Shown here: positions 4,191 to 48,500 of the stretch, piece after piece | How positions within the stretch are numbered: position 1 is the stretch's first letter | Layout of the letters: each line of letters opens with the position of its first letter | Origin: a virus | Virus record (IMG/VR): IMGVR_UViG_3300045988_101293 | Coordinates: 1 to 62,254 of that record | Direction: 5' to 3' (one strand) | DNA: 62,254 bases | Notes under the pieces: model-generated | What the model saw: the letters and a program-made list of their open reading frames with translations, nothing else | Databases searched by the model: none | Told to the model about the DNA's origin: nothing | Program-made: the position numbers and the translations under genes

Positions 4191-4301
4191 GTTGTTAGTT
4201 ATTAAGTAGACTGTTCACTACTGTTTCGATATACGCTTCTGCCGCAATTATATTGCGCTTTCTGCGCTTCTCGAACGCGTGTGTTATATTTTCTATATAC
4301 A

Positions 4302-6358: not shown

Positions 6359-6392
6359 TTTGTTTTGTTTTTTTGAGTGGTTAATACATTTG

Positions 6393-6487
6393 TGCCAACC
6401 GAAGGAATCGAACCCTCGAACGCTATAAATAAGCAACATTACTAACTTTAAACTCAATCATGGATTTTGCGTTGAACCTTCGTTGAC
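6393..6487 (-). ncRNA. tRNA-like element 1: canonical T-arm (GAGGG-TTCGATT-CCTTC) but no foldable cloverleaf
   Basis: The minus strand reads ...GCGTTCGAGGGTTCGATTCCTTCGGTTGGCACA. The only 5' partner for the acceptor side (GTCAACG, 6/7 pairs) gives a 94-nt molecule. The middle forms a long imperfect hairpin, not D or anticodon arms. Confidence 0.3.
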
Positions 6488-22103: not shown

Positions 22104-22843
22104 GGCTCTTCACTTTGTTGAGGTTGATACTGCTGAACTTGCTGAGGTTGTTGCTGAATAGTGTCAGTAATATCGGCCAACTGCTTAGCAGTAGTCAGTA
22201 ATACGGCTGCTTGTCCTTCAGCATTAAATGCTATTGTTGCTAAATAAGCAATAGCATACACAATGGGCCTATAAAGTCTTTCGGGCAATGAAATCTCGCC
22301 ACTTTTATTTATTTGGGGATTTGACAAATAGGTATAACTACACGCTGATTTACCAGCACATGAATAGGCTTCAAAGCAATAATCGTTATCGCCACTTTCA
22401 ATGTTCGGAACAAAAGCTAACACAGGCCTTTCGGGGCAACCCCTTACTCCTTCAACTCTACTACGCTGCAAGGTATATTCGGCATCAGTAGGAGTTATGA
22501 CCTCCTCTTCGGTAACAGGCATCAGCCAATCAGCCATACGGAACGAAACAAGTCGAAAGTAATCATTGGGTACTGCAACTTGTGCATAATAGCGTTTGTC
22601 ATTATCGAACACCTTATTGTATTCCACATTGGGTTTTTCTATCGTTGTTATGCCCTTACCTATCATGTGAATAGGTGCAGCACCAATAATGAGTTTCGCA
22701 CCATCTACTATTTTTGACTGAATAATCTCGTCAAGTGCCAGCGTATCATAGTCTCCAAAATCAGACAACATAGTTCCGTCCATATTTTGGTCAATGGCAA
22801 TGCGTACCTCTTTTACTATTTCATTTACTTTATAATTGGTCAT
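22100..22843 (-). CDS. Neck / head-tail adaptor candidate
   Basis: Immediately downstream of portal with an ATGA overlap. Q/P-rich tail. Confidence 0.35.
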   Translation of the reverse strand: MTNYKVNEIVKEVRIAIDQNMDGTMLSDFGDYDTLALDEIIQSKIVDGAKLIIGAAPIHMIGKGITTIEKPNVEYNKVFDNDKRYYAQVAVPNDYFRLVSFRMADWLMPVTEEEVITPTDAEYTLQRSRVEGVRGCPERPVLAFVPNIESGDNDYCFEAYSCAGKSACSYTYLSNPQINKSGEISLPERLYRPIVYAIAYLATIAFNAEGQAAVLLTTAKQLADITDTIQQQPQQVQQYQPQQSEEP

Positions 22844-25328: not shown

Positions 25329-26843
25329 TTAACCGTAAATTTCGCCTGTGTACTCTACCCACTTGGTGTCTTTGTACTGCCACATAGTGCCAGCTTTTGC
25401 CGACTTGTTGATAGCAACACAATCATTGATGAGGTAGTAAACAATGCCTTCAGTCGTTTCAGGAGCAGTATCTTTCTCCCACATGGCAAAGGTAATTGCA
25501 CCTTCATTGGTGTCATCACCTTCACCATTGATGAAGATATGACAACCGCCTTTCAGCGCAAGACAATCCCACACAATCAAACCCTTGCGAGTTGCTTCTT
25601 CGCCCTCTACGCGGTCTGAAAATTCGTGGTCACTTGTGCGTTTATAATGAACCAATCGGTCTTCGCCCAACAAAGCACCCGAATTGCTCCAACCTAATTT
25701 ATCAAGTGTCGGTTCACGTTTAATTTCAATATCGCCAAACACGGTATGGAAGTTGGTTACAATCCAACCTACTGGATTAGTTTTGGTAGAAATTTGAATT
25801 TCGGGGTGTTGTGTATAGTCAATGCACTGAATTTGTTCAAGCAAATTCTTACCAGCCAAAAGAATAGCAGTCTTAGGCACATCTTCACCTGTAAAGAACA
25901 TCTTTGCCAATGCAATAATCTTCTCTATGGTCCACTTGCCAGTATGCTGCAACTCACGCATAAACTGCCAACGAATACCCTCGGCACAATAAACAGTCTG
26001 TGCGCCCAACTTGGGTACATTTACCGTAAACTTACCTTTGCGACCTGCCCACAATGTGCGGTTGCAACGTGTCTTAAAGTTGGTAATGGCTTGTTCTGCA
26101 ATGAGTGCTTGTGAAAATGGAATGTGCTTTTTCTGACTTTCAAAATAGTCTGATACAATTTGGTTCATACCTCGCTTCTGCAAGTACACCTCGCGAGGTT
26201 GCGGAACAATAAGGTCGGGAGCAACCTCTTTTTGTGTTTCATACAATGCGTTTGAAAGAATGCAGATTTCTGTGTTTTCGGGAATAGCTGGCACGGAACA
26301 GAATGTTGAACCTGTCATGCGCTTACCATTCACGGCACGACAAACGGGGTTGCCATCTGAATCTCGACCAGTTACAAACAACATCAAGTCTTTGCCTGGT
26401 GTTTTATTCTTACCTTGCTCGTCATAACCAGCAACACCCTTTACGAGTAAAGTACCAAACTCTTGTGGAATGTTTTGTTCTGTGCCATCAAGAGGAAGTG
26501 AGAATGAACTTGAATTAGCACTTTCGGTTACTGCATTAATTGTGGTTACTGACGATTTCGGCTCGTCAATCATGTAGTGTTCCACTTCGGGCGAGTCAAC
26601 AGGTACCTTTTTAGCCTTAAGCATAAGTTGCATAAGAGGAGTGTCATCACCTTTAAAGGCAAAAAGGTCTGCATCAATGTCTTGTTCAACAAAATTGCCA
26701 GCACCAACACCACCTGTTGCATTGGCTGCATTCGACACGGTTGTTGCTTGACCCGAAACTTGGGTTGACAAACCTGCTGAACCCTTACTGGGGGTGATTG
26801 CAGCGTCTGACTTCATCTGAACGTTTTCTGTGATTTCTGCCAT
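25329..26843 (-). CDS. Major capsid protein
   Basis: 504 aa, directly downstream of the scaffold-like gene, in a tight late operon. Confidence 0.6.
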   Translation of the reverse strand: MAEITENVQMKSDAAITPSKGSAGLSTQVSGQATTVSNAANATGGVGAGNFVEQDIDADLFAFKGDDTPLMQLMLKAKKVPVDSPEVEHYMIDEPKSSVTTINAVTESANSSSFSLPLDGTEQNIPQEFGTLLVKGVAGYDEQGKNKTPGKDLMLFVTGRDSDGNPVCRAVNGKRMTGSTFCSVPAIPENTEICILSNALYETQKEVAPDLIVPQPREVYLQKRGMNQIVSDYFESQKKHIPFSQALIAEQAITNFKTRCNRTLWAGRKGKFTVNVPKLGAQTVYCAEGIRWQFMRELQHTGKWTIEKIIALAKMFFTGEDVPKTAILLAGKNLLEQIQCIDYTQHPEIQISTKTNPVGWIVTNFHTVFGDIEIKREPTLDKLGWSNSGALLGEDRLVHYKRTSDHEFSDRVEGEEATRKGLIVWDCLALKGGCHIFINGEGDDTNEGAITFAMWEKDTAPETTEGIVYYLINDCVAINKSAKAGTMWQYKDTKWVEYTGEIYG

Positions 26844-28447: not shown

Positions 28448-30580
28448 CTATATCACCGCTTCGGTTATTTTGTTCACTTTGTGCTTGGGTTTCATGCTAA
28501 CTTTTCGCTCAACTACAATGGGCAGTGGCATTACCTTAAAGTTGTAGGCTATGTGCAGACCAATGGCACGTGTCATAAGCAAATCGTCATGTTTGCCAGC
28601 TATGGCACCATATGCGCCATTAGGCTTTTGCTCGTAAGTAAGGTATTCGTCAAGGCAGCGCGTGTCGCGTTCAACATACAAATGCTCACGCACCACTTTC
28701 ACAAGGTTTGAAATTACCATGGGTTTGGTGGCTGCATTGGTGTGAAAACCATACTTGCGTGGCGCGCCCTCACGAATTTCGTCTTCGCTCTGTTCGCGTG
28801 CATAAAGGTTGTCGTACACCTCTTTAATTTCGTAAAGAATGAATTGCGATTGGTCGCCATCAACCATGCGGTATTTGTCTTTCGTTTCGAGCGTATTGCT
28901 TTCAATCACAAGCAAAGCATCGTCATACCACTTTGCTATTTGCGCTGCCTTCCATGCCAACAAGTCAATGTCGATGTGGCCATACCATTGTGCCACCACT
29001 TCGGGGCGTTCACCGCTCATAAGATATAGTCGGTCAATCACACAAATTACCGACCAGTCGGCCTTGGCAGACCGACCACCAATGTCTACTACAACAAGGT
29101 AGCGGTTTTTAATTTTTTCAAGTGGGTCAACTTCGGGTTTGTCCCAAACGCATAGCAATCCTGTTTTGTCGGGTGCAAACCTTACGTGTTGCAAAGCCTC
29201 TTTACCTTCATCGCCATCGGCATATACATCGCCCACATAACGCGGTGGTCGGCATGCAGGGCGGAATTGCTCAACAAGCAATTTGTCAAACACCTTGCAG
29301 CCTGAATAAACAAAGGCTTCGTTATCGTCAGTGGGGTACTCACTCGCCATGTCGCCATGGTCGGTATATTTTTTCCTTTCGTCAATGTACCACGCTATGG
29401 CTTCAAGGGTTGCGCCACATTGCCACAAGTACCACAAGTATTTTCCTGGTTCAGCACGATTGGTAGGGGAGTACACTTGGTCTTTTTGCGCTTCAAGGCT
29501 TTGTGCAAAATCACGTTTTGCCTTTTCGGTTTTAAACTCCTTTCGGTCCAATTCGATTTGATACCACGCTATAAAGAGTGAATGAAATTGTGAGGTGCTT
29601 TCTTCACCTCTTCGTAGGTGTTCGTCACTCTCTTTTGCAGCATTGTATTCGCGTTCAAAAAAATTGCCTGTGCCATTTGCCGTGCTTTCGTACACTATCA
29701 TTGTCAGTGGCTTTAGGGTTATGCCCGAACAGGCTGAACGTACTACCTTTTCGGGCGAGTGATTGTCAGTAGGAGACCAAAGGCCCACCTCGGTGCAATG
29801 CACAAGACTATAAGCACCACCACGTGCCGACTCTGGCTTTTCATACGACCCAATTTTTATTTTGAAATTCCGCTGTGGTATGCGTTTAATGTTGCCACTA
29901 TTACCCACAGCACTTTGTTTGGGTTCGTTAGGGTCAAACTCCTCACCAACGTTGTGCAGCATAGCGAGTGGGTACTCATTTATCATTTTGTCAAACATAT
30001 CACGCACCTCGTATGAAGCATCTTTTACATGACCCACAATCAGCGAGTTCAATCCCTCCTCTTGCACCAACTGCAACCATGCCATATAAATTTGTGTGGC
30101 TGTTGAACCGCCCCATTGTCGAGCTTTGAGCAGTATTAAACGTATGGGTTGGTTGGCCAATCGCATTTGCTCAAATCGCGTAATGAGTATGCGTTGTGGG
30201 TAATTCAAACTAAAGTGAATGTCGTCGCCACCTAATTTGTTGCTGATTAACACATATATCACGGCCCAAAACGCAAAGTCATACTTGCACCTTATGCGCG
30301 TAAACGTTTGTATGATGTAGTCGGCTTCATTATTGCTGAACACGGCATCTTCGTTCAGTGTGTCGTAAAACTTGCGTATGCTGCCACATTCAGCTAATTG
30401 TTTCACAAACGGCTCTTTCATCATCTCTTTGGGTAACCATTGCTTTTTAATCGGGAAGTCCGTTATCGTAACAAGCACACGTTCAAGTATGCTACCCTCA
30501 CCCGTAACGGGGTTGAAGGTTGCAAATAGTTGAGCATTTCGCTGCGCGTTTTCGTGCAATATGTCGTTCATGCTTGGCAT
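28448..30580 (-). CDS. terL: Terminase large subunit
   Basis: ATPase motif LLKARQWGGSTATQ and nuclease-domain motif YLVVVDIGGRSAKADWSVICVIDR; 710 aa. Confidence 0.8.
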   Translation of the reverse strand: MPSMNDILHENAQRNAQLFATFNPVTGEGSILERVLVTITDFPIKKQWLPKEMMKEPFVKQLAECGSIRKFYDTLNEDAVFSNNEADYIIQTFTRIRCKYDFAFWAVIYVLISNKLGGDDIHFSLNYPQRILITRFEQMRLANQPIRLILLKARQWGGSTATQIYMAWLQLVQEEGLNSLIVGHVKDASYEVRDMFDKMINEYPLAMLHNVGEEFDPNEPKQSAVGNSGNIKRIPQRNFKIKIGSYEKPESARGGAYSLVHCTEVGLWSPTDNHSPEKVVRSACSGITLKPLTMIVYESTANGTGNFFEREYNAAKESDEHLRRGEESTSQFHSLFIAWYQIELDRKEFKTEKAKRDFAQSLEAQKDQVYSPTNRAEPGKYLWYLWQCGATLEAIAWYIDERKKYTDHGDMASEYPTDDNEAFVYSGCKVFDKLLVEQFRPACRPPRYVGDVYADGDEGKEALQHVRFAPDKTGLLCVWDKPEVDPLEKIKNRYLVVVDIGGRSAKADWSVICVIDRLYLMSGERPEVVAQWYGHIDIDLLAWKAAQIAKWYDDALLVIESNTLETKDKYRMVDGDQSQFILYEIKEVYDNLYAREQSEDEIREGAPRKYGFHTNAATKPMVISNLVKVVREHLYVERDTRCLDEYLTYEQKPNGAYGAIAGKHDDLLMTRAIGLHIAYNFKVMPLPIVVERKVSMKPKHKVNKITEAVI

Positions 30581-30612: not shown

Positions 30613-33612
30613 TCATCGTTGCATGTCGGTCATTCGTGGGGCAAAAGTAATGGTTGTTCCTTGCAAGGTTTCGTTCTGTTTAAATTCGGGAAGGAACAAC
30701 ATCAGTCGGTAGTATTTGTAGCCAGTCCCCCTAAACCCTCTAAGATAAATGTTTGAACTTGACCACACAGGCACCCAGTTGTAAAGGTCGTTACTGCCAT
30801 AAAGTGCTTGCTTTACATCGTCCTTACTGCAAAAAACTCCTCTCTGAATAAGGCTATGCAGTGTTTTATGCACATCGGGATAGCCTAATTTAAATGGTCG
30901 CGTAATGAGGTAGGCTTTTTGCGCTTCAACCACTTTGTCTGACGAGTAGTTGTACACCTTATATTGCGTATGATCTTTGGCTGTACTCACCTCTTTCACC
31001 ATTAAACACTCTTCGTACACATTCAAGTTACTATGAAAACCTTGTGTCATGATGCTCCACATGCCCGAAGCAGCTTCCATCACATACGAATAGTTATGCT
31101 TTTGGTTGTACACTATCAGTCGCCCATGAGGGTAGTCGTATGCAATTCGCGCTCCAGTTGTGAGGTAGGTATAAAGGTCAACCATTTGGGGGACTGCATC
31201 AAGGTGCAATACATTTGTGAAAGCCTTTTGTATAAATGTTGCTTGATGATTGCCTTTGCACGTGTCGTAATCATAAGTGGCAGTAGGGTCGGCAGGCAAT
31301 AAGAGTTGACGCCCCTCACCGCCTAACGAAATTATGCCTTGTTTAGTTACAAACACAACGCTACTCTCCATGTTTGACACGCTATTGGCATCAGATAGAA
31401 TGTCGTATGAAAAAGGTGAGCAATTTTGCAGCGTTCCGTCTGTCCCTACCCCAATAGCATACACACCATCTGTGCAGAAAGCATACAAAGGGTATTGGCC
31501 AAATTGGCCTTGGCTTACTGCACGCGAGTTGCTTGCAAGGGATAAAACAGTTCCTTCACCACATTGTGCGCTATTACCATCTTTAAAAACAAATGGGTTA
31601 TTAACTTCTGAGATTTTTACTAAGTTTCTATTTTCTTCATAATCACGGTTAGGTAATGAATACAAATCATATCCTGGTTGTGTCTGTGTAGTATTAATGA
31701 TGGCATTTTTTATTTCATTTTTCTCATTGAAACAATATGATACATTTAGAAAGTCACTCTGGTTAAGTTGTAGAACCAAAGCTTTAGCATTTACTACATT
31801 TGTAACTTCGGTATCACTACTAAGATTTGGTACAATTGATAACCTATCTGCCTTCGACTCTGGAATTGTTATAAATAAAGGAATGCGCAATGAAGAATTA
31901 TTAAAGTCCTTTGATGTCGCACGAATTTTGCACTTAGAATATGAAGATGAGCGATATTCATTTACTTCAATGTTACCAATTTGCTTTTTATAGTTTCGCG
32001 TATCAAATAAGACTTCGCAAAAAGCACTACTAACATTTCCTGTGTTGATATCAATATACTTCTTATTTATGACGTCTGCATGTGAAGGTGTTGCCTCTGT
32101 AGATGTATTCTTTTCGGAATCTTCTACAAGTGGTGCTTCAATGCTTATGTCAAGGCCGCTCATGTGCATTTTCCTTATATTTGCAGCAACTAATCGTGAG
32201 TTGAAACTATATAACCTTGATGCTTGTATGTTTTGGCTTGAGAAAGAATTATCTGTTAATTGCGTTCCTTCTGTATAGTTTACAAGAGTCTGTTTGTCTT
32301 TTTCAATTATATTATTCCAATCCTTACAACCATCCAGATATTCGCGTATGGGGAAAGAACGAACCAAATAGAAATTTTGAATATCCTTAGCTTCTTTGTA
32401 GCCAAGTTTCTTCTTGAAAACTAATTTAAAATCACTATCATTTGCCCCGTCTAATTTGAGAGTTCTTTCAATATCTAATTCATCCGTATCTATTGTATAC
32501 AAAGGCTTAGATACAAATATATCTATTGAAGCAATTAAGTCCTGCCATTTTCTTAGGTTGTTTAAATTGTTTGATATTTCTGTCGTAGTATCACCATCAT
32601 TCTTACATTCTATTTGATATGCTTCAAATCCAACATAAGCTTCTTTAATGACATATTTTATAAACTTTGTTTTTTCGGTATCTGATGAACTTTCTTCTAC
32701 TGCACCCTCATTCTTAACGATAAGAGTAGGGCTATCATTGGAAGGGAATACTAAAATCGGTGGTGATATATTGATATAATTACCATCATACATTTTCATT
32801 GCATATCTCAATACAACAGGGTACATAAAAAGACCTTTTTTATCAAGTTCTTTCTTTGTCGAATTTACAGCTGATAGTATAAAGTTTTCTGCTATTTCAA
32901 AATTACCTTTTGTTCCTGCAGTAGATTTATTATTGTTGCCCAAACTGGATCTTGATAATCCAATAGACATTTCTTTGCTTGAATAACGAACAAAGTAAAT
33001 GGAAATGCCATCCTTATATATAGTGTCAGAAATAGCCAAAACTGTATTGCAACCTGCATCCGTCCACCCTCTAAATCCGTGATTATATAAGGCTGTCTTG
33101 TAATCTGTATTACCTCCTGCCCATTCTTTACTTCTTAGATTTTGTCTTACTGCTTTAAAATGAATGTTTATGAAGTCTGGTAATCCTACAAGGTACAAAT
33201 AACACGCTCCTTGAGACTGGTATACCAAATGGCATAATTTCCCTTCATTTACAAACGAAATGATTTTACCAGTTGCACATATATCATCAAACTTTTGCTC
33301 TGTCGCTATATCATCTTTTATTAAATTTTCGTCTCCTAATGTGTTGACATTCAATTCATAAGCAGATAATTTGTAAGTTGGGTTTATAGCACCATCACTT
33401 TCAAAACCTATAATGATAGTCTTATCCTCCACTTTATGCACGAACATTGGTTCGAATCCGTCCTTATGATACATAACATCTTTAGGTATTCTCACAGCAT
33501 GATACCCACCATCCCTATACTCCGCATTTACAGCCAACTTCATCTCACCATCTTCGCTCTGGTAATCAGAAGGCTTGGATGTCATACCCTTGTATTCTAT
33601 TCTCTGTTCCAT
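30613..33612 (-). CDS. Large (999 aa) virion structural protein, function unknown
   Basis: Long beta-rich ORF between the small basic protein and terL. Confidence 0.4.
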   Translation of the reverse strand: MEQRIEYKGMTSKPSDYQSEDGEMKLAVNAEYRDGGYHAVRIPKDVMYHKDGFEPMFVHKVEDKTIIIGFESDGAINPTYKLSAYELNVNTLGDENLIKDDIATEQKFDDICATGKIISFVNEGKLCHLVYQSQGACYLYLVGLPDFINIHFKAVRQNLRSKEWAGGNTDYKTALYNHGFRGWTDAGCNTVLAISDTIYKDGISIYFVRYSSKEMSIGLSRSSLGNNNKSTAGTKGNFEIAENFILSAVNSTKKELDKKGLFMYPVVLRYAMKMYDGNYINISPPILVFPSNDSPTLIVKNEGAVEESSSDTEKTKFIKYVIKEAYVGFEAYQIECKNDGDTTTEISNNLNNLRKWQDLIASIDIFVSKPLYTIDTDELDIERTLKLDGANDSDFKLVFKKKLGYKEAKDIQNFYLVRSFPIREYLDGCKDWNNIIEKDKQTLVNYTEGTQLTDNSFSSQNIQASRLYSFNSRLVAANIRKMHMSGLDISIEAPLVEDSEKNTSTEATPSHADVINKKYIDINTGNVSSAFCEVLFDTRNYKKQIGNIEVNEYRSSSYSKCKIRATSKDFNNSSLRIPLFITIPESKADRLSIVPNLSSDTEVTNVVNAKALVLQLNQSDFLNVSYCFNEKNEIKNAIINTTQTQPGYDLYSLPNRDYEENRNLVKISEVNNPFVFKDGNSAQCGEGTVLSLASNSRAVSQGQFGQYPLYAFCTDGVYAIGVGTDGTLQNCSPFSYDILSDANSVSNMESSVVFVTKQGIISLGGEGRQLLLPADPTATYDYDTCKGNHQATFIQKAFTNVLHLDAVPQMVDLYTYLTTGARIAYDYPHGRLIVYNQKHNYSYVMEAASGMWSIMTQGFHSNLNVYEECLMVKEVSTAKDHTQYKVYNYSSDKVVEAQKAYLITRPFKLGYPDVHKTLHSLIQRGVFCSKDDVKQALYGSNDLYNWVPVWSSSNIYLRGFRGTGYKYYRLMLFLPEFKQNETLQGTTITFAPRMTDMQR

Positions 33613-33938: not shown

Positions 33939-34544
33939 TTAAAAAGGTCGCAAAGGTCGTGTAAGCACACCTGTGCGCATGTTCACTTTTCGTTTTGCTT
34001 CGTCAAGCAATGTTTGTGCTTTAATTGCCCACTTTTCAGCAGCGTCCTTGTTGGTTATTGATAGCCAGTCGGCCAAAGCTGATGCCACAAAGTATTCATG
34101 AATAAGTTGCTCTAACAACTTGGCAGTAGTGTTTGAAAACTTTTGCGAAACATTCAATTCAATAACGTAAGTGTCGGATTCTTTAAACAAATCGTCTAAC
34201 TGCATGTCATCTTCACACGGCTCTTTTGTGAAACGATACAATTCTTCAACGCAAATGGCATGCGCAAGGTCAAGCACACGTGTCACGCGGTCAACATTGC
34301 CGTCTTCAGTAATGTCAAAAACTTGGTGCTTTGTGTGCGCATCATCGGTCGGCATTACATCACCTTCAACATAACTCACATTTGCTATGTCGTAAAGTAG
34401 GGCTTCGCGGTCAAACAACAAAGTTACTTTGTGCTTAGCGTCAGAACTATTTGCGCTGCACTGGCAATTTGCAAGTTTTTCAATGCAGTCGGCAGGGCCT
34501 ATAACATAGCCATAAGGCCCATAAATCATCTTTGTTTTATTCAT
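33939..34544 (-). CDS. Head/neck protein, member 3 of a tandem paralog trio
   Basis: C-terminal SALADWLSITNKDAAEKWAIKAQTLLDEAKRKVNMR...RPLRPF. Confidence 0.4.
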   Translation of the reverse strand: MNKTKMIYGPYGYVIGPADCIEKLANCQCSANSSDAKHKVTLLFDREALLYDIANVSYVEGDVMPTDDAHTKHQVFDITEDGNVDRVTRVLDLAHAICVEELYRFTKEPCEDDMQLDDLFKESDTYVIELNVSQKFSNTTAKLLEQLIHEYFVASALADWLSITNKDAAEKWAIKAQTLLDEAKRKVNMRTGVLTRPLRPF

Positions 34545-35145
34545 ATCGCAATTCGTTTTGTTGGGGTGGGGTTTGTTCGGGTGCATGAACACGTGTGGGC
34601 CGTATGCGTTTGTTCATGGCAGTGTGTAGTTCTAACAATGCTGCCTGTGCTGATTTAATGTAGGTTTCAGCTTCGGCTTTTGCAGGTGTTAGCAATAGCC
34701 ACGTTGCAACTGCTCGGTCAGTCATGTAATTGTGCATGGCATGAGCAATGTCGCCACGAACTGAAAGGTTAAAGTTCATTGGCACGCGAAGCATCAAAAA
34801 TAAGGTGTTATCTTCTTTCTCCTCACTTTGCGCTGCTGGCTTACCTTGATAGCCAAACACGAGTGCATGCTTGATTTTGTTTCGCTCTTCTTGCTGCAAA
34901 ATGTTGTCAGCATATCTGTTCGTCTCAACAAGATATTCGCTTAACTCATTTCGTAAACAAGCATACGACTCAGCGAATGAGCGCAAAATAGCGTCTTTGC
35001 GTTCATCGGTCAAGTCCTGCACCTTTGCTGCTTGTTCTGACGTTTCGTCTGTGCGCATTGCATCGCCTATGAGGTGCGCTTTTTGCTGCACATCGTACAC
35101 AAGTTCGCTCATGTACAATTTTATCTCAATCGTTTGTTTTGCCAT
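34537..35145 (-). CDS. Head/neck protein, member 2 of a tandem paralog trio
   Basis: C-terminal RAVATWLLLTPAKAEAETYIKSAQAALLELHTAMNKRIRPTR. Confidence 0.4.
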   Translation of the reverse strand: MAKQTIEIKLYMSELVYDVQQKAHLIGDAMRTDETSEQAAKVQDLTDERKDAILRSFAESYACLRNELSEYLVETNRYADNILQQEERNKIKHALVFGYQGKPAAQSEEKEDNTLFLMLRVPMNFNLSVRGDIAHAMHNYMTDRAVATWLLLTPAKAEAETYIKSAQAALLELHTAMNKRIRPTRVHAPEQTPPQQNELRYE

Positions 35146-35150
35146 CTTGC

Positions 35151-35633
35151 TTATTCGTAATTAGTTTTTTTATACTTCACCTCGGTGGGTTGCTTGCGCA
35201 TTGGGGCTGCACGCATGGTGCAAAGTTTTCGCATTGACAATAAATTTTTTGTTGCCGTTTGAATTTGTAATTCAGCGTCTTGCTTGTTAATGATTGAGAA
35301 CCATTTGAAGAGCGCATAAGAATAAAAATACATCGTGGCTATATCTGTCAATCCAGCTATTTGTGACGTGTCAAAATTGCTCGGCAGTGTGAGCTTTATG
35401 CTTATTCCTGTATCGCTATTCGTTACATAAGGCTGATACGTGGCAAGCATAGATGAAAGGTCGGCTATGGCTTCGTTAATGCAACTTTTCAAAAACGTTT
35501 CATCAACTTCGGTTGTAGCTATTCGCTTGTAGGCTGTTTCGTCTTGCACGATGAGTTTTGCTCCCTCGTAAGCAGTAAATTCATGCAGTTTGTTCAGCAC
35601 ATATTGTAATTGTATGGTAATTTCTTGTTGCAT
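35151..35633 (-). CDS. Head/neck protein, member 1 of a tandem paralog trio
   Basis: C-terminal YALFKWFSIINKQDAELQIQTATKNLLSMRKLCTMRAAPMRKQP. Confidence 0.4.
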   Translation of the reverse strand: MQQEITIQLQYVLNKLHEFTAYEGAKLIVQDETAYKRIATTEVDETFLKSCINEAIADLSSMLATYQPYVTNSDTGISIKLTLPSNFDTSQIAGLTDIATMYFYSYALFKWFSIINKQDAELQIQTATKNLLSMRKLCTMRAAPMRKQPTEVKYKKTNYE

Positions 35634-35725
35634 ATTGTTTTGTGTTTTTATGCAAATATAAAGCACCTTGCGTTGATAGACTTTTTATTTCCGACTTTAT
35701 ATACTTCATTTTTTTAGAATATAAT

Positions 35726-36508: not shown

Positions 36509-39500
36509 CTATTTTTTTTGAGGTTTGTTTTGCTTTGCAATATCTATGATACGTTTGACTATATCTTTGCGCATCTCAATGGTCTTGTTGCTTCTTTCTT
36601 CAGCTTTTTTGGGGTCATTTGAATAGTCTTGCATCCAAAGGTTGTAAAGTTCTTTCATTTCTTTATCTTCTGAATTAACAACTCCCTTTGTCGCTTCTAT
36701 CACTTTTACGGCTTGCTTTTGAATGTCAACTTGTTGCTGCTGCAACTCTTTGTATTTGTCGCTATTAGGGTCAGTTACAGACATTGCCTTTCGCACAGCA
36801 CTTAGTTGTTTATTATATGAGTCCATCATAGTTGCGCTAAAGCCTTCGGGCGAATACATTAAATCATAAAACTTTGACTTGTACTCTGGGGCCTGCAATT
36901 CCTTTTTGTAAAGCGAAAGCAGTTCTTTCGTCTTTTGATATTCATCGTTGTATTTATAAAACTTGCTGGTGATGGCTCTGTCTTTGGTTCTTTCGTCAGA
37001 TGTTTTATAGAAAGAATTAATGATTGGCACATTTTTCAGTTCACGATTATCTTCATTAAAAGGCATTGAAGCTACCTTCATCGTTTGGAACACGAACTTA
37101 CCTAATCCGCCAAAATAGCCTTCAAACAAGTGCTGAATTTTAGCAGGGTTCACGTCCATCACTCCAACATTTGCTTTCTTTACATCGTCACCTCCACCCA
37201 ACTCATTCAGCAAGCGACTTGCCCACACAAGAGCTTGATTAGTACCCTTGTAGGCTTTCGTCCATTCGGGTCGGTTTTTGTTGTATTCAGCGTCTTTGTA
37301 AATGGGTGTGCCTGTGTAATCCTTATTTGTAACGTATGCTTCAACTATGGGCTTTGCGTAACTTGGCACAAATGAGGTTAAGCTGCCACCGCCCTCCATA
37401 AAGTCAACGGGGAATAATTGTGACACTTGTTCAAGCATTTTGGTAGCGATGTCAGTGGCAGTGTATTCCTCATTGCCCGAAAGCACACTTTGCGCCAACT
37501 CTCCTAAGCCATAAAAAGCACGCAACTCAATTGGCAATGGAATTGTTACCCACCCCTTGCCAGTGTAGAAGCACAGATTGTTTCTGCGTACCCAATCGGG
37601 CAAGTCGTAATAGTTTGTATCGTCATCGCCACTGCCTTGTGAAAGAGCTGCCATCAGCATAGGAAGTGCTGTTCCTATGGCAAAGTACAAACCTGCAACT
37701 GCAAGTGTTTTGCCTTTACTCTTTCCAAAAGTTCGGCTTACGTTTGACAAACCTTGAACTCCTGCATTCCAGAATACGTACAACTCTTTTGCACTTTGCG
37801 ACATGTAGGCTTGCATAACGTTTAGTCGGTTTCCGTCCTCCCATTTGCCTGCTGCCTTTGCGCCAGCACCTTTTTTGTTGAAATTAACTGAAATCTCCTT
37901 AGCGTCCCAAATTGATTTTTCAATGCTGCGTCCCATTTCACGGCTTGTTCTGTAAGCTGCAAATCGGCTTGTGTTTTCGGCCCATGTTCCAAGGTAATTG
38001 ATTAAATTGTCAAGGAACTTCAACCACGACTTCGGATTCCAACCACTGCGTCTACTTTCTTTCAGTGCCTTTGCAATCATGTTTTTATAATCGTCAACAC
38101 TGTGCAAGAAGGTATAACCTGTTTCACCACCATTTTCAATAAACTCTTGATACATTCGGTCAACTTTGTCGTTCATGTTAAGTGTTCCCTTGCGTTGCCT
38201 TGTTATCAAACCGAACAAGGTGTAAAGACTTTTGCCCCAATTTTTATTGAACTTCCACGCATACGCTGGCGACTCCTTGGCCCAAACCATGCTGTTTGCA
38301 TAAAAGCTATCGCGTGACAAATTGCTAAGAATGAAAGCTGGGTTCTTTTGCGTGAACATAGCTGCCATGAAATGATTTGTTGATTGGAAGAATTTAATGA
38401 ACGGATTATCCGTGCTGTCAGGATTGGTCTGCCCATTCAATGCTTGCGCTGCTTCGTGGTTGCCGTTTATTGTTAGCACATAATCTTTACCTTGCATTTT
38501 TACATGCACTTGGTGTTCGTTGATGTTCTTACCTACCACCTTGTATTGAATGTCATGAGCTTCGCTCGCCTTTTTGTACTCATCTGGCTTTTGTTGGCAT
38601 AAGGTTTCCATTCGTTGATTGAATGCTTCGACCTTTTGCGCAACAGCATTCGCATCGTCATGCTCATCAAACTCGGCAAAAACAGGTTTCCACTCTTGCG
38701 TTGCAGCATCATAGTGCAAGTAAAGTTGGTCAACGCTCACTGCATCACTTGGGTGGTTCAACACCATTTTTAAAAAGTGTTGCTTCATCTGGTTGCGATT
38801 GCCTTGCATAATGGCAGACTCGGCCATGTTGCCAATCGTTGCTATGGGGTCGTCAGCCTTACTCTTACGACCTTTTGCGCTACGTATGCCACCGCCAAAT
38901 TGGCCTTTTGCATTGCCAAAGTAGTTGTACACCTCGTCACTTGTTACATCGTCAAAACCACGCAAAGGAATGTAGTTTTTAAACATATCAAGTGTGTGGT
39001 GATACACCTCGTCTGTCAAAAGTCCACTTTCATATTGCTTTGTGAGCGAAGCCTTTGTGGCAGCATTCGTTCTGTTCCACAATTCAGATGTGTCGTATTT
39101 TTTCTCAAAGTTTGATGAGGAGTTTTCAGCTATACGTTCTGCTTCGTTCACCATCTCTTTATTTAGTTTCGCAATTTTTATTCTGATACTTTTTTTCGTT
39201 GCATCATCTCGTTCATTGTTTAACTGCTCTTTGAGTGTAGCTATTTGGTCTTGATAGCTCTTTATGCTTGGGTCGTCTGTCGTAAGTTCGGTAAGGCCCG
39301 AATAATCTTTGCTCCTGTACTTTTTGTAACTGGGTGCGTACTTCTCTCTTATGGCCGTGTCGTTTGCCTTATAATCGTCCCAACTGATTTTGCCACTTTC
39401 AAAGTCTGTTTTGTTCTGTTGTGCAGTTGCATCGTTTTTATAAGCCTTCCATGCTGCTGACATCTTTTGCTTATCGTTGGCAAAATCATGTTTCAAGGCA

Positions 39501-42500
39501 TCTCTAAATGCAAGCACTTCATTTCGCTCCAATCCGTGTTTTGCCATCATGTAGTTAGTCACTTGCTCGTGAATAGTACCTTTGTCAAGCAACTCTTGTT
39601 CGGCATCAAGCAGGTCTTTATAGAACGACTTTTTGTACGTTTCCATCTCGGCAAGGTTGGTCGAACTCATTCGGTTCTCGGCCATGTAGGCATTCTCCCA
39701 ATCTTTCAAATCTTTTTCGTTGGGTACAATCGCGTCTTGCAACAATTTTAGTCCCGACATGCTATCCACCCATGCAAGGTTCATTTTATGCTTTGCCGTG
39801 TTTACGCTTCGTTCATATTCATCGCGTGCGCTTTTGCGTTCTCTCTCTTCGCGGTAGTATAAGTTCTGCTCACGTGTTTTTGCGTCAACCGCTTTAGGTT
39901 CGGCAAAGTCGCCTACCTTTAAGTGTTGTTGTCGCCACGTGTCTTCGGCCACTTGATAGATGTTGCGTGCAGGGCCTTCAGCCAAGTTTTTCCAACTGCG
40001 CCACAAAAGGTAACGTAAGTCATTATCGCTAAGTGTTGTTCCGCTAAAGCCAGCAAAGCCTAACTTATGAAGCATTTTAAGGAATGCAAGTTTTAGTTGA
40101 TGCCACCATCGTTTGTTCACATTTTTGAAAGTTCTGTCCTCGGCCATACTTGCCATATATTCCTCTGTGGCTTTTCGCATATCCCAACCATATTTGGCTG
40201 AATTATGGGCTATTTGGCTGCGTGTGGCTTTGTCAGCATTTTTGAAAACGAAGTCAAGGAACTCATTCATTTTCTCTTTACCGACAAGTTCTCTTAAGCC
40301 ATAATGCCCTACGGCTTCATGTAGCATGGTGTTAACAACATCGGCTCGGCCATTATGGTTAGGCAGCACAATGGTGATGCGCCCTGTTTGAGGGTCGTAC
40401 CACCCTTTTGCATTCTTTTTGCGTCCCGTCAGTCCGTCTGTCGAAGTCAACACATCTACATTGCCACCTAAGTGCATTTCGTTTGCTACGGCCTTAGCTG
40501 CTTGGTGCATAGATTTTTCTTGGAGAGAAAGTTGCGATGTATCGGGATTATTCTCTACCTTTGCAGTAGGTGTTGAATTGTTTCGGGACAAAGTTCCGTC
40601 GGTATTCCGTTCTTGCGGTAGTAACAATTCAGCACCATTTTTTATTTTGTTACGTAAGTTGCCATCTCGTTTTATGTGTACAGAACTTACATAATCTTCA
40701 ACCTCTCCATGTTTATTAACTGCTACTATATTATACGTATTACCGCTATTATCGCTCTTAAATCGTTTTATGTATAATGTACTACCATCTTTGTCACGTA
40801 TGGCAAAATCAGCATTTTCAATAGTTGAAAGTACTGCACCTGATATATTTGAACGTTTCTCGCGTATAATTTTATTGAAAACCTCGTCCTTTACTTTTAC
40901 GAGTTCCCCTAAAAATGTTCGTATAGGGTGCTTGAATACTTCTTTAAAACTCTCTAAAGTTGAAATGGATTTTGGCAGACTTTCACTTGTCGGTTCACTG
41001 AAAATATTATCAAGTGCAGCAAGTGCTTCTTCACCTTTCAAGGTTTTAGGCTCGGTTTCTCTGAACCTCACATCTTCCACATTCTCGTCAAAACGCTTCG
41101 AAGGAGGAATAATCTCACCATTATCATCACGCGTAACAAGGTCATTCAATTTGCGGTTATTCTCCACATTCTTGTACTTGTAACCTCTGCCATCGTCAAA
41201 GCCCCACTCACGACTATCGTTTCCGTCCCACCACAACTCACTCACGGGAACCTCATCCTCAATAATGCGGTACTTGCCCTCTAAGCGGTTGTTGCCATGC
41301 ATCTCAGCATAACCCTTTGATGGAGTCACCCAGTCACCATTGCGCAATTTTCCTTCTTTCACAGATGTAGGCACAGCACGATACACTTTCACCTTTACAT
41401 TCTTCTCGCCACGTCTGACTGCGGCTATTGCCTCTCTTATCGCGTTTACCGACTCCACAGCAGTAGCGTCAGTCTGCATGTACTTGCGTGGCTCCTGCCA
41501 ATATTTTTCGTCAACCAACGAATAGCCTAAAGCTATATCTTCAATATTTACATCGGGAGCATTCTCCTCCACATCTTCTCTGCGCGCTGCATCACTCTCA
41601 TAACCAGGGTTAGAGGGTGCGCTCCATGCCCCCACACCTTGATAGTCGCTTTCAGTGTCATCATACCCCTTACGGCGTGCAGCCTCGTCAAGCATCTCAC
41701 GTGCAGCGACCTCGTCACCATTCTCAATCGCATCAAAATAACGCTTGTCAAGTTCCTCGGTTGACAATAACGACATATCTTCTAAGTGAGCCTTGCGTTT
41801 CGCCTCCTCTTCCTCGGCACGTTTGCGAGCTGCCTCCATAACGCCTTGTTCACGCATAACAGCATCAATGTGTTCCTTCCGCAACGTTTCTATGTCGCCA
41901 TAACGTTCAGCCAGTTCCTTTTGTACAGGACGGAACAATTTGCTAAACTCCGAAAGTTTCATACCTCGGTTCGCCACGCGCATTGTGCGACGTATTTCTG
42001 CCAATGCAATATTAGCCTTTTGCAAGTTGCCTGTCTTCATGCCAGACGCATAATCCTTCACCATATCTGCATCCACGCCATGCTCTTTAGCAAACTCTGA
42101 ATAATCATCATCCGTTTCCCTCTCTTGGGGCATTTCACTATTCGCATTTCCACCATCACCACTCATCAAGAAAATTTGATCCTCACGGCTCACATCCTCT
42201 GTTTCGGCTGCAAGGCTCGCTATACGCTCCTCTGGTGTCATATTCATACGATGCTCTACGTTGCGTGATTCTACTTCACCACCAAGTTTTGTGTACTCTA
42301 CATAAGGACTAAATTCAGAACGCGTACTTTCGTTTAAACGGAAATTCTTTATGTCTGCATCAAGACTTCTGTCTGCATACCCCCTTGCAAAGTAATTAAA
42401 ACCCTTCATGCGAGTTTCCTTATCGGGCATCCATTCATCATTATCCATGCCCATTTCCTTGTACTCATCAATTAGGGCTTTTTCCACTGCAGCTTGATTG

Positions 42501-45500
42501 TAATGCTCGCCCATTTCATCTGCCTTGTAACGCAATTCATCAGCCCAAGCACGCGCACGCCACTCCTTTTTAGCAGCATCAAATCGTTCTTGCATAGATT
42601 CTGGATTACCGCCCCTTGCAAAACCCTCAATCTTCTGAATAGCATGCTGCACCTCATGAGCCAATACGGAAGCTATGTCGCCCACATAATTCGTATTGAC
42701 TACAATCGTATGCTCACGCTCATTGTAACTGCCACACACATTTACAGGCAGCTGGTCAGTAAACACCATTTTCACACGCTTCAAGTCGGGATAAGCCTTA
42801 AACAACTCATCGTTCTCCACCCAGTCAGCAAGGTGCGGTTTTTCTCTATTCAGATAGTCTTTCTTGAATTTCTCTTCCTTTTGTGCAAGTTCATCAAAAC
42901 GTTGGTATTCTGATTCCGATAGTTCTTCACCATCAAATATCCTATCAGACAAACCATCAAGTTCCTTGCTCCAAGGTTGCTTTTCACGTGCTTTTTTATA
43001 ACCAGCATCACCCTTACTAAAATACTTCAAGTCGGTGATCTCATAACGCCACTTGCCATCTGAGCCACGTTCCCAACCCGTAGCCATCTTGATAGCCTTG
43101 GCATCCTTCTTGTCGTTCTCCATCTCACGTGCCACACTCAAGTTGTCAAGTCGTGTTGTCACCTCTTCGGCATGGTCTGCACGTTCCGCGCCTTGCTCAC
43201 CAATGAATTGTTCACGAATTTTGTTGTAATCTTCAAAAAACTTACCGCCACCGTAGGATTTCTCAACACCATTCAGTAAATTTGCAGCAGTTATAGATTT
43301 ATCGGAATAGCGGGGGAAGGTCGATGTCAGTCCTGACACGTTCCCATGTTGACCAGCCGATACCTCTGACTTAGAGTTGCTTGGTTCAAGGTTATGACTG
43401 CCTTCAGTTTGACTGAAAGAACCTTCAAGCAACTCTATTTTTGTTGCCTCATAACTATACGCTTTAGGTGTCTCCTTTGTTCTTGTATTCTCCTTCAGCG
43501 TAACCTTAACCCTATACAGCTTTCCGTCCATACGTACTGCGCCATACAATCTGTGTATGGTTACATTGGGATTGATGCCATTCTCTGCCGAACGCACACC
43601 ATCTTCGCCTTTCTTAAAGTCTTCGTGTTGTTCTGCATCCACACTTTCACGGATAACATCTGGCAACACCTTCAGCACTGACAAATGAACGTCCTTGCTA
43701 TCACTCTTATCAACAGCACTTTGCGACAAATACTTGTCAACGGCCGCATTGCTAATACGAATATCCCCCTTTCCACCTGTCTCTTTACTGCTATAAGTGC
43801 GTGCTATATGCTCCTTCGCCCAAGCCTTAGCTTCGGCATAATTCTTAAAGCCATGCTCGGCCTTAGCTGCCACTATATTGATACGCGTTTCAGGACGAAG
43901 GCTCTTGCCACCGTCCATCATACTACGAGGATCCACCCCGTCAAGCAAATCCTTCATCACTTGGTCGGCAACTTGTTCTGCACTGGTGTAGTGAATGTGA
44001 AGGAAATCGGCCACTGCCTTCCAAAACTTTTCAATGGCTTGTTTTACACGATGCATGGCATTCATGGCTGTGGCTTTGTCAAACACATTGCCATTGCTTT
44101 TAGCTATATCATCCATCTCCTTACGCAAGCGCTCTGCACCTCTGCGACCTGAATAAGTGGCTAACACTTCATCGGCTATCTCATCATCTGACTTTAGTTC
44201 TGGATAGAGTTTCTTCACTTCTTCCCAAACTGATGTGCCTTTCATTAAGCCTACCACATTCTGCCATTCCTTTGCGTTATTTGCCTTCAATGCACTCGCC
44301 CATAGGTGCGCATATTCATGCACTGGAGTTTCACTCGTTGCCACCTTGGGATCTATATAGATTTTTCCACCTATTGTAAAACCATAAGCCTCGCCATTCT
44401 TTGTTTTGAAGAACCTCACGTGATCTGTTATCTTCGCGTCATTCTCGTTGAAGATAACATAATTCTTGGCGCCATCCTCACGGCCACCACGCATATTGTC
44501 TGCAGGGTATTTGATGCCAATATAGCCTAACTCGGCCAATGTTTGTGATGCTTTCTTGTCACTGCCAAGAGCCTCCTGCAATTCCGCATACAAATCAGCT
44601 CCTGTCGCATTTGGGTTCAAAACAACGGTGCTTTTTCCTTTCTCATATCTGGCAGGGCTATCCTGCACCCTCTCAAAACCATTACTCTCCAAAAAAGAGC
44701 CTACGTCTTTCAGTAAAGATTCAGCAGGGTGACCATTCCAATCCAGATAATTCTTACCTTTGTCGTCGGGAATTTCTATGGTGTAGAGGTGACTTTTAGG
44801 CTTTCTGATACGAATGCCTTTTAATGAGAGTAAGGTTCGTGCTGCCTTAATTTTCCCCTCCGCATAGTTTCTTGTATCGCCTAGGCTTTGATAAAACAGG
44901 TTTTTATATCGAGCCAAATCGCCTTTCTTCAATATGTCTTTGGCTCTTGTTACACCATATCGTTCAAGATTGTACATGAAGTCATTAAGCATATTCTCGT
45001 TCCAGTCTCCTATCTCGCCCAGTACATAATCATGAAATTCATCGGAAGACATTTCTTTACCACCATATAAATATGTTGGCTTTTTGCTGGTGCTTTCGGC
45101 ATACGTTCTACCAATGCCCTCTACCTCTGTCACATAAGTACCCCAGCCATACGCCTGAGCACCTTCTCCCTCGCCCATATGGGAATGGTCGAAGTGGTCA
45201 AAATCGGCACCGCTGCCGTGGTAAACGCGTTGCTCACGAATCATGTCTTCGTTTACCTCTTCACGTTCTGCAAGCCCCGTTGTATCTTTAAAATCTCCAC
45301 TATAAAGAGATTGCTGAATAGAACGTACAATTTCAGCTAAAGGTTTCCCCTCTGCCCTTCTTAACTTTATAGAATCGTAATAATACTCAATAATATGAGC
45401 ATTACCATCGTTCTTTATCTTTTCATTAGGCTTTGGAGATATAACTATGCTAATACCATTATCACGGCCATTATAGTCAAAGCCCGACACATGTGCATTA

Positions 45501-48500
45501 TGATTTGCAAGACGGATAGTTACTACTATCCCATTTTTTGTTTCAAATGTTGCATATTCGCTGCCGCTTCCCAAACGTTTCGCACCAAGAGCCTTAGCCA
45601 CGTCACCGATAAAAGTTTTAGGCTGCGTTGCAGATTTATCTAATTTATTAGCAAGTTCATCTACATTTTTCAGTACCTTTGCACCATCAGCACTTGAAAC
45701 GACAGTTAATGACCTTGGATTATTTCCAAGAGAGGCGGTTTCAAGTGCTCTTTTTTGTTTTGCACTTAACCTTACTTCTCTTCCATTCGCCATATCAAGC
45801 ACCTGCTGACCTTTTTCTGTGCCAAGCACATCAAGGCCACTTTCCTTCATGTGGTCTATCACTGCATCACGAAGTATAGTCTCCTCACGCGTAGGGAGCT
45901 GTGCAGACTTTCCGTCAGCCTTCTGTTGACGCAAATCTTCTGGCAAAGCACTATACTTCTGCGTTACCATTTCATCTGCGGCATCTATTTCCTTCTTTGC
46001 CTCTGCATACATCTGCTTTAGCACGGGGTCAGCCTTCATTGCTTTGCGCTCCTGCAATCCTTTTTCTGAAGTGCTTTCTGCTGATGTCGTAGCCTGAGTA
46101 GGATAATGCTCAGATACATAGTCTTGTATTTTATCCTCCCATTTCTGTTCCACGTCTTCCAGATGGTCTAAAGCCTTTTCATATTCAAGGACTTCATTCC
46201 GTTCCACAACATCCTTCTTCACCGACGAGTACTCACCAAAAGGCTTTGTCTTACGCTTGCTCGACTCTATCCACTTCTCAAAGTCTTCGAGGTTCACTGC
46301 CGTCACGTCTATTCTGCGCCCGTCTTCCCAACCTTTCTCATAGTTAGCAAGATAGTCGCTCTTGGCTTCGTCAGCATCGTTGAATCCAAGCATCACCTTA
46401 TGCTCGTCAAAACTGCCATCTGGGTTGTACTGGTCCACTACAAACACCTTGCGTCCGTTCCAACCATCAATGTCATTAGAGAGGAACACGTCTATATGGT
46501 CACCATCAACACCCACTGCACCACGAATGTAGCCATAAGTGTTGTTCATCTTGCTTTCCCACTGCTTACCGTCAGCATCAGTGCCCTTACGCACACTTCC
46601 CTGCGGTTGCTCAATGGTGATGTCGAACGTACCGACTTGCACATGTCCCTTCTTGTAGTTGCCTGCCTCCTTCTGCGCCTCAGTGGGTTCGGTGTTCACT
46701 TCGGCTGAGGCGGTGGCGATCTTCTCACTCAACGGGGTATCACCATTACCCGAAGGCCCAACATCACCCTTTGCCGAAGATTTCTCACCCTCGGTTGCAC
46801 CTCTTTCCACATCTGCGTCGGCTGTTACTGCTGATGTATCGTTTGTTTGCTTGCCATCTGTACCGCTCGTGCCAACATCATTGCTTTGTTTGCTGCTTTG
46901 GTTTCTTTGGCCTTGTCCGTCTGCAAGGGACGTGGCTGTTGTATTGTATTCTCGTCCATTGTTTAATGCTTTGTTTACTTCGTTAATAATTTCGGTTTTG
47001 CTCTTTACACCACCCACAAACATATCGCCTATGCCTTGGGCAGCATCAGTGGCTTGCTCGTTGTAAAAAGCAATCACCTTTTTAAGTTGTGTGCTACGAC
47101 CATCGTTCAACACATCGGCCAACATCATCACGGCCATGTTGTTAAAGTCTGCCACAGTTGCCCCTTCATCGTATTCAAACAAATTGCCTTGGTGGGCAAA
47201 GTAGCTCACGTGTTGACCCAACTTGTAGCCAGCCTTACGCGCTCTGTACACTAAGTTCACCGCTTCGGCCAATTCGTTTGAAAGGTTATAGCCACCGCCC
47301 AAACGATTGTTTTGCACAATGTCCTGCAAGGCAGTCATAACCGCTTGTCGCATGCTTTTTACCTCGGTAATTTGGCGCACTGCATCGGGGTTGGCTTGGA
47401 ACACCTTGCCAATCATTACCCCCTCAATCATACTTTGGCCAGCTTCGCTCAACTTACCACCATCAAACAGGTGGGCCATTTCGGTTTGCGGAATGATGTC
47501 AGCTTCGGCCAACTGCTTAACTACGGCATAAGTAGCATTGTCGTCAGCATAAAATTCGCCTAACGTGTCGTACTTGCTAACCATGTCCATTATACGGCCA
47601 AAGAGCGCATCATTCACTACTTTGCCCATTTTAACGGCCATCTCTGTATTGTTCTGGCTCTTTTGCTCACGTTGGTTAAACTTGGCAAAGGTGTCGGCGT
47701 TGTAAGGCATAGCTTCATTAGGAACAAACACCACACGTGGGTGCTTAAAACCATTCACTTGCTCTGGTGTAAAGCCAAACTTATTAGCATGCGAATGAAG
47801 GTAATCAACATATTTTGTGTCAGTTCCATCTTGTGCAGCCAGTTCGCCAGCCATTGTGCGTCCGTTGCCCGAAAGCACCACACCCTCTTGGCTCACCACC
47901 ACAGGCGACTGCAAGGCACGTTGGTCATAATCAGTGGCCATACTGCGTGTAACTTGTTGCGCTTCTTGGTCGCGTTTGTAGTCGCGGTCGTTCACACTCT
48001 GCCCATTCTCGTCAATAGGGAAGCCTTCGGTTTCGGCAAAGCCATTAGTGGCTTGATGCGAAGCACTTGCAGCCCCACTCTCGGTCAGCACATAGTGTCC
48101 CTTAACCACCTCGCCATTAGGCAAAGTAATTTCATCGGCATCGCCATTCTCCTTTTTAGCTGCGTTCCATTTATCACGAATAGTAGGAGCTACGGCATTG
48201 CTGCCCAACTCGGCTTGTTCAGTGGCCTTGCGTGCATCATCCTGCATGCGTTGTTGCTCCTCGGCCACGGCTTGCTCGTGCAAAGCTTTATCTTTTTCAT
48301 CACGAGCATGTCTTTCAGCGAGCAACACCTTGTCGTGTTCTGCTTTCACGCTCTGCCAATAGTCAACGGCCTTTTGAGCTTCTTCAACACGGGTTGTGTA
48401 GGCTTCTTTCGCTTCCTTATATGCAGCTATGCTTGTACCCATTTTAGGTTTACCATTCTTCACCTTATCAAGGTTCTTCTGCGCTTCGGCAAGTTTGTTG

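Follow-up and report, generated by a model that had tools for sequence, protein, structure and literature searches.

The 62,254-nucleotide stretch of viral DNA recorded in IMG/VR as IMGVR_UViG_3300045988_101293, analysed here at its whole length and called the window, carries on its minus strand a giant open reading frame (ORF) at positions 36509-53233. The encoded protein is very probably a phage-type polyvalent protein of a temperate Bacteroidales phage, one that, by the published model of this class, would be packaged, injected and processed. The ORF consists of 5,574 codons, begins with ATG and is uninterrupted. An earlier note, made by reading this DNA without database searches, had described within one translation a cluster of catalytic signatures (three HExxH motifs, an H-Y-type ADP-ribosyltransferase [ART], a ParB-like element, an acidic site, and a second, possibly ART-like block), and every peptide that it quoted is indeed present in this ORF. 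Of these seven signatures, six are borne out as conserved domain motifs. Unrelated catalytic domains (ParB, InPase, ART, three zincin-like modules, and a PBECR2-like domain) stand here in a single ORF together with LPD3, LPD23 and LPD38. The gene lies among structural genes, on the same strand, of a phage with a portal and a terminase, and its modules recombine into permuted architectures among giant homologs. Phage-type polyvalent proteins were described by Iyer, Burroughs, Anand, de Souza, and Aravind (2017, J Bacteriol 199:e00245-17; PMC5512222), so the protein is a new, very large example of an already published class, and it adds scale and detail rather than principle.

Modular architecture of the giant protein

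Homologs were taken from a collection of 5.8 billion proteins and from an exhaustive HMMER search, and the edges of the modules were placed where the alignments start and stop. The centre of the giant protein proved to be a chain of sharply bounded modules, each with its own set of homologs, which bears out the suggestion that the signatures belong to several separate enzyme-like modules rather than to one enzyme. The order is DdrB-type ParB, InPase, LPD3-like, ART, HEYAH zincin, LPD3, LPD23, HEVQH zincin, M1, M2 (PBECR2-like), and HEAVGH zincin. The central array comprises at least 12 independently shuffled modules, and the whole protein at least 13 recognisable ones. The features, in window positions and in residues (aa) of the protein, are as follows.

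36509-53233, minus strand: giant ORF, probably polyvalent, 5,574 aa; near-identical ortholog of 5,747 aa (P0239)
47741-48112, minus strand: DdrB-type ParB, aa 1708-1831; Pfam PF18763, 37.9 bits (cutoff 27.6), E 2.2e-9
46265-46681, minus strand: InPase (family-I-like inorganic pyrophosphatase), aa 2185-2323; Pfam PF18823, E 2.5e-55
45254-45946, minus strand: additional LPD3-like module, aa 2430-2660; hhalign probability 90.5% against LPD3, E 1.4e-6; not called by Pfam
44423-45241, minus strand: ART-PolyVal candidate, aa 2665-2937; Pfam PF18760, 26.4 bits (cutoff 31.2); DUF3990, E 0.014
43919-44422, minus strand: zincin-like module 1 (HEYAH), aa 2938-3105; from conservation and model
43484-43837, minus strand: LPD3, aa 3133-3250; Pfam PF18798, E 2e-14
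43031-43162, minus strand: LPD23, aa 3358-3401; Pfam PF18838, E 2.7e-11
42359-42946, minus strand: zincin-like module 2 (HEVQH), aa 3430-3625; from a weak Pfam match and conservation
41060-42121, minus strand: M1, aa 3705-4058; shuffles as one unit of ~350 aa
40514-41059, minus strand: M2, aa 4059-4240; PF18810 matched by 2 of 8 family members, best E 2.1e-4
39959-40513, minus strand: zincin-like module 3 (HEAVGH, HExxxH), aa 4241-4425; from conservation and model
36512-39886, minus strand: conserved C-terminal region, aa 4450-5574; phrog_14770
37649-37705, minus strand: hydrophobic segment, aa 5177-5195, within the C-terminal region
37019-37618, minus strand: LPD38, aa 5206-5405; Pfam E 5.7e-44

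The ortholog P0239 is 89-97% identical to the giant protein across its full length. More distant relatives are numerous: the HEVQH module alone finds 6,356 related proteins at E<=1e-3 in the exhaustive HMMER search, and the best 150 of these include 45 proteins of more than 4,000 aa, the largest of 7,242 aa. Many giant relatives are 5,000-7,200 aa long. The order of the modules is permuted among them, and the last ~1,100 aa are always C-terminal and collinear. Other homologs combine MuF_C, PBECR1/2/3/5, LPD13 and InPase in other arrangements. The motif residues are unchanged across sets of 44-84 homologs at 30-80% identity. Two of the motif-bearing domains, ddrB-ParB and InPase, score above the curated Pfam cutoffs. 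The N-terminal region (aa 1 to ~1700) gave no Pfam domain match, and a search for a recurrent junction or cleavage motif between modules yielded no convincing candidate.

The ParB and InPase domains

The ParB-like claim is right. The ddrB-ParB domain exceeds its Pfam cutoff, and the quoted peptide LSGNGRTMA lies within it, at aa 1787. In all 15 homologs, G1789, N1790 and R1792, the arginine of GNGR, are invariant.

The InPase domain is matched at 186 bits over the full length of its Pfam profile (positions 1-135 of 135), and its homologs set the boundaries of the module at aa 2130-2350. The acidic stretch YGYIRGAVGVDGDHIDVF begins at aa 2233 (window 46484-46537), and the VDGDHID within it is the site of the InPase, formed by D2243, D2245 and D2248. 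The proposed DxDxD site is thus of the pyrophosphatase type, although its spacing is in fact DxDxxD. Ten residues are invariant in all 56 homologs (E2208, R2215, Y2233, D2243, D2245, D2248, D2267, D2276, E2277, and K2279), a set that resembles the active site of family I pyrophosphatases.

The same region matches the C terminus of the portal protein of Pseudomonas phage Pa193 (9b41_L, E 5.9e-25), as well as PHROG families that go by the names 'virion structural protein' and 'minor head protein'. In the Pa193 portal, gp19, the InPase domain occupies residues 637-763, and the deposited model covers residues 94-528, so that the InPase part lies outside it (PMC11042391). We found no structure of a virion-associated InPase domain in the PDB.

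The ART module

The reading of this module as an H-Y-type ART holds up. It is split into an N-half (aa 2665-2720), a variable helical insert of ~90 aa (aa 2720-2812) and a C-half (aa 2813-2937); the insert is missing in the homolog P0019. The N-half carries the invariant residues H2672, Y2700 and Y2711, the first two of which are conserved in 44/44 homologs and lie on strands in the predicted model. These residues belong to the peptides VYHGSG (aa 2670) and GWGTYVTE (aa 2696). The N-half matches PF18760 below the cutoff here, and in the homolog P0023 the score rises to 32.7 bits, above the cutoff of 31.2.

The third active-site residue required a different approach. All relatives align with the Pfam ART profile over its N-terminal third alone, so the acidic residue cannot be placed by that profile. 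We therefore sought it with a hidden Markov model (HMM) of the C-half, run against fetched proteins that included divergent copies in giant proteins and gp5 of Sulfitobacter phage phiGT1. The C-half of this wider family follows the pattern G[IV]xG[IVL]x[YF]xxD...N[FY]V[IV][FW], and the conserved Asp of [YF]xxD aligns with D2912 (IKYPAD), on the strand that precedes the NYVIF strand. As D2912 matches an Asp kept in the divergent copies, and as this fits the published H-Y-D configuration, the acidic residue is probably present, and D2912 is probably the third active-site residue of an H-Y-D ART. The proposal that the catalytic Glu may have been replaced, which was based on an alignment of NYVIF, is not supported by this comparison. 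NYVIF lies at aa 2924, and its Asn, N2924, which is kept in 118 of 124 copies, sits on a different strand, the one after that of D2912.

Four relatives (P0106, P0112, P0117, and P0119) have the ART N-half joined directly to the C-terminal helices of a HEYAH module. In these decayed or recombined cassettes, the C-half of the ART is deleted, as is the HExxH motif.

Three zincin-like modules

The giant protein contains two HExxH motifs, where 0.14 would be expected from its composition (Poisson P ~0.009). These are HEYAH (44306-44320, aa 2972) and HEVQH (42644-42658, aa 3526). The third site that had been counted with them, HEAVGH (40304-40321, aa 4305), is of the HExxxH form, and its metallopeptidase-like character stands, as it does for the other two, on invariant His, Glu and His residues with a downstream Glu. 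The positions given in the earlier note for these three sites were exact, whereas those for VYHGSG...GWGTYVTE (given as 45134-45223, actually 45125-45226) and LSGNGRTMA (given as 47855-47872, actually 47849-47875) were a few bases off.

In the HEYAH module, H2972, E2973, H2976 and E3022 are invariant in 79/79 homologs. In the HEVQH module, whose motif extends to HEVQHxxQxxEGF, H3526, E3527 and E3536 are invariant in 66 homologs and H3530 is kept in 65 of the 66. In the HEAVGH module, H4305, E4306 and H4310 are invariant in 84/84, and E4358 and E4365 are nearly so. Structure models cover the HEYAH and HEAVGH modules; the HEVQH module was judged from its sequence. The HEYAH model has three strands (2940-2960) followed by the HExxH helix and a later helix that bears E3022. 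The HEAVGH model, with pLDDT values of 85-95, has an N-terminal helix, three strands (4259-4289), the motif helix (4296-4311) and a helix with the Glu residues (4352-4365). The three sites thus appear to behave like zincin active sites, a reading supported by residue invariance for all three and by predicted topology for the two that were modelled.

Resemblances to named families are faint. The HEVQH module (~aa 3475-3552) reaches 25.3 bits with Pfam DUF6782 (cutoff 27) and matches SprT-like at E 0.0019-0.025, and its homologs match SprT-like at ~6e-5. For the HEAVGH module, the BFVD matches are to IrrE-N-like and SprT-like proteins at E 0.03-0.06. Links between the modules are weak as well (HEYAH-HEVQH, E 4.5e-4; HEVQH-HEAVGH, E 5e-5, probability 67%), and all three are mutually very different, with hhalign probabilities of 3-67%.

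M1, M2, and the C-terminal region

The second block suspected to be ART-like, VKVYRAV...LWWDGNDSREWG, spans aa 3948-4011 (window 41201-41392) and forms the C-terminal, beta-rich part of M1. Few stretches of the protein are as strongly conserved (R3952 in 74/75 homologs, S3972 in 73/74, and E4009 in 75/75). The order of these residues, on or near strands, is suggestive of an R-S-E ART, yet no search supports this. In classical R-S-E ARTs the residues are spaced much more widely than in this block. An hhalign comparison with the ART module gave a probability of only 0.1%, there was no Pfam match, and no ART appeared among the listed Foldseek matches in the PDB and BFVD, so that this label had to be dropped. 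The model of M1 is confident, with an alpha-helical N-terminal part and a small beta C-terminal part, and the best PDB match of the model that contains it has an Sm-like fold (E 0.09). Residues 3857-4015 match positions 334-463 of phrog_2579 ('ParB C-terminal domain') at E 1.6e-19, and small proteins of 90-231 aa exist that are made of essentially only an M1-type domain. M1 is classed here as a highly conserved domain of unknown function and not as an ART.

M2 is tentatively a PBECR2-like RNase of the barnase/EndoU/colicin-E5/RelE type, as judged from the PF18810 matches of its family members; the homologs P0126 and P0151 match this model at ~2e-3. Most of the C-terminal region, from aa 4454 to aa 5527, is matched by phrog_14770 (E 1.3e-220). 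In a phmmer search of the PDB, the segment aa 4793-4879 (~38597-38857, minus strand) showed a weak, recurrent similarity to dihydrofolate reductases over their C-terminal half (35 chains; best 4qi9_A, E 0.0037), which may be due to chance.

The phage genome and the neighbouring genes

The giant gene takes up 27% of a genome of ~62 kb. The following neighbours are of note.

22840-24831, minus strand: P22-like portal, downstream of the giant gene
25329-26843, minus strand: capsid-like protein, downstream of the giant gene
28448-30580, minus strand: large terminase, downstream of the giant gene
30613-33612, minus strand: ORF of 999 aa between the giant gene and the terminase; phrog_32516 (unknown function), E 1.4e-102; no Pfam match
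33939-35666, minus strand: tandem of three paralogous small ORFs (171, 202, and 217 aa; phrog_19255, phrog_35482) directly downstream of the giant gene
5294-6457, minus strand, and 8993-10207, plus strand: a protein carrying MutS domain I at its C terminus (E 3.6e-12), adjoining a YqaJ exonuclease, and a Bacteroidetes-type tyrosine integrase

Besides the tyrosine integrase and the YqaJ exonuclease, the window encodes a GH108 endolysin, and the presence of the integrase shows that the phage is temperate. Iyer et al. count MutS-I as a nucleic-acid-binding domain that occurs in polyvalent proteins (PMC5512222). Two temperate Bacteroides phages in culture, BKO1-TP3 and BS-TP4, have portals that are 64.7% identical to the one encoded here. 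An identical portal is found on a metagenome contig of 62,270 bp, which indicates that the window is roughly the entire phage genome. The named homologs of the modules belong to gut Bacteroidales, for example Prevotella, Parabacteroides, Alistipes, and Muribaculaceae, and the source of the DNA is a temperate gut Bacteroidales phage. A megablast search with the giant gene against phage and plasmid collections gave no match.

Proposed function and alternative explanations

By analogy with the published model of the class, the giant protein would be packed into the capsid and injected together with the DNA. Once delivered, its enzymatic modules might target the nucleic acids, nucleotides and proteins of the host during the first minutes of the infection. 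One or more of the three zincin-like modules may cut the polyprotein and so release separate effectors, and possibly attack proteins of the host as well. We infer packaging, injection, cleavage and all of the enzymatic activities from that model. Polyvalent proteins are known to carry both HEXXH and HEXXXH metallopeptidases (MPTases), up to five per protein, as well as H-Y-D ARTs, and DdrB-ParB, InPase and LPD38 are listed as domains specific to the phage type (PMC5512222). It has been proposed that the MPTases cleave the polyprotein into functional units or target host proteins (PMC5512222); the suggestion in the earlier note that three such sites mean either self-processing or several host targets is this published hypothesis, re-derived.

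Several observations weigh against this interpretation. The ART-PolyVal score falls short of its cutoff and covers the N-half only (aa 2669-2721, profile positions 8-58), and position 2912 varies in the close subfamily (D in 17, Q in 13, and E in 8 of 44). Neither the HEYAH nor the HEAVGH module is matched by Pfam, and the MPTase-PolyVal model PF18818 never appeared. Profile searches of the modules against PDB sequences gave no significant match except for InPase; the other PDB sequence matches, from single sequences and from profiles, were coiled-coil noise or chance. Foldseek comparisons of the two structure models with the PDB, which bear on a refuting condition named in the earlier note (no fold match in support of any of the enzyme families), gave nothing significant either (best E 0.2 and 0.09), a weak negative, as both models contain several domains. 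The terminase and capsid genes separate the giant gene from the portal gene here, whereas the two are adjacent in BKO1-TP3.

The alternative that deserves most attention, although we consider it somewhat doubtful, is that the giant protein acts uncut and that the zincin-like modules are effectors which cleave host proteins, involved in defence or housekeeping, after injection. Iyer et al. name this alternative and point out that an MPTase is present in both ArdC/TraC1 and the virion RNA polymerase of N4, which are nevertheless delivered full length (PMC5512222). The great differences among the three modules would suit different substrates, and the HEVQH module resembles SprT-like proteases. 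The lack of a demonstrable conserved junction or cleavage motif between the modules is a poor guide in this matter, as none is known for the class either. It is also conceivable, but unlikely, that the main role of the protein is structural, in ejection or in an internal core, and that many of its enzyme-like modules are decayed, inactive passengers. The hydrophobic segment in the conserved C-terminal region, the N-terminal 1,700 aa without domain matches, the variability of position 2912, and the relatives in which the ART N-half is fused to the HEYAH tail with both catalytic parts deleted would all fit such a role. However, every module of the protein studied here retains the full set of polar residues that are invariant in its family, which argues for selection on activity.

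Two further explanations can be largely set aside. The protein might be a 'DarB-like antirestriction' protein that works like P1 DarB, since aa 2129-2493 match phrog_10089, which carries this name, at E 2e-49, and the BKO1-TP3 homolog gp55 is named in the same way. The defining features of P1 DarB are a DNA methyltransferase domain and a helicase domain. Neither has a Pfam match anywhere in the 5,574 aa, and the phrog_10089 match is limited to the InPase region. We rejected the label, which looks like an annotation transferred through a multi-domain PHROG or through giant proteins, and find a DarB-like role highly unlikely. That the motifs arose by chance in a long protein of low complexity has next to no probability. 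Short motifs are common in a protein of this length, and the lack of a significant PDB fold match would fit chance, but HExxH occurs well above expectation, the residues are invariant in 44-84 homologs, and two domains pass the Pfam cutoffs. Conservation and Pfam together refute this explanation for all of the signatures except the second ART-like label.

We retain the polyvalent reading. In a more specific form, which we regard as rather improbable as a whole, the protein could be a self-dismantling train of effectors. The conserved N- and C-terminal regions would serve packaging and ejection, the modules in between would be rapidly swapped cassettes, and each zincin would cut its own junctions and so control the release of the effectors, with M1 as a new enzyme or nucleic-acid-binding effector.

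Significance

Proteins of this class are frequent in gut phages, and experimental work on them is scarce, although the concept itself is already published. Relatives are abundant in gut Bacteroidales phages, as the number of proteins that match a single module indicates. If such proteins are indeed injected arrays of effectors, they would represent an extensive and hardly explored layer of counter-defence among the phages of the human gut. The cultured Bacteroides phages BKO1-TP3 and BS-TP4 make the hypothesis of packaging and self-processing testable. The HEYAH zincin, the HEAVGH zincin and M1 lie outside Pfam and merit family definitions.

Comparison with known systems

The giant protein shares with the polyvalent class (PMC5512222) zincin-like modules of the MPTase kind, a probable H-Y-D ART, the DdrB-ParB and phage-only InPase and LPD38 domains, together with LPD3, LPD23 and a mosaic arrangement of modules. 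It differs in that published members have 2 to 15 domains per polypeptide, whereas here at least 13 modules are joined to ~1,700 unassigned N-terminal residues. Another difference is that HEYAH, HEAVGH and M1 match none of the Pfam models built from the work of Iyer et al.

The closest counterpart in a cultured phage is gp55 of BKO1-TP3 (XPO94969.1, PQ571269; 5,553 aa, annotated as 'DarB-like antirestriction'), the product of a giant late gene in a related temperate Bacteroides phage. The InPase domains are 68% identical, a weak similarity is seen in an N-terminal stretch, and aa 4238-5513 (~1,275 aa) are 39.6% identical to the C terminus of gp55, including a HEAVAH site in gp55. In contrast, the central array of gp55 is a different one, with no match to the ART, HEYAH, HEVQH, M1, or M2 module, and the gp55 gene directly adjoins the portal gene, which the giant gene here does not. 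The paper describing BKO1-TP3 does not discuss the gp55 gene (PMC12694917).

P1 DdrB, the prototype of the autoprocessing idea, has a DdrB-type ParB domain and, at its C terminus, an MPTase; it is processed and packaged in the head (PMC5512222). DdrB is a two-domain protein that is processed to ~700 aa, whereas the ParB domain here is one of more than 12 modules. Gp50, the virion RNA polymerase of coliphage N4, is likewise a giant, MPTase-containing protein of a short-tailed phage that is packaged in the virion and injected. N4-like relatives of this polymerase are fused to the same ART family, but no RNA polymerase module was detected by Pfam in the giant protein. T4 Alt belongs to the R-S-E clade of ARTs, whereas the ART described here is probably of the H-Y-D type. 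Nevertheless, as an ART that is delivered from the capsid and modifies host proteins, Alt provides a model for how the ART module of this giant protein could be delivered.

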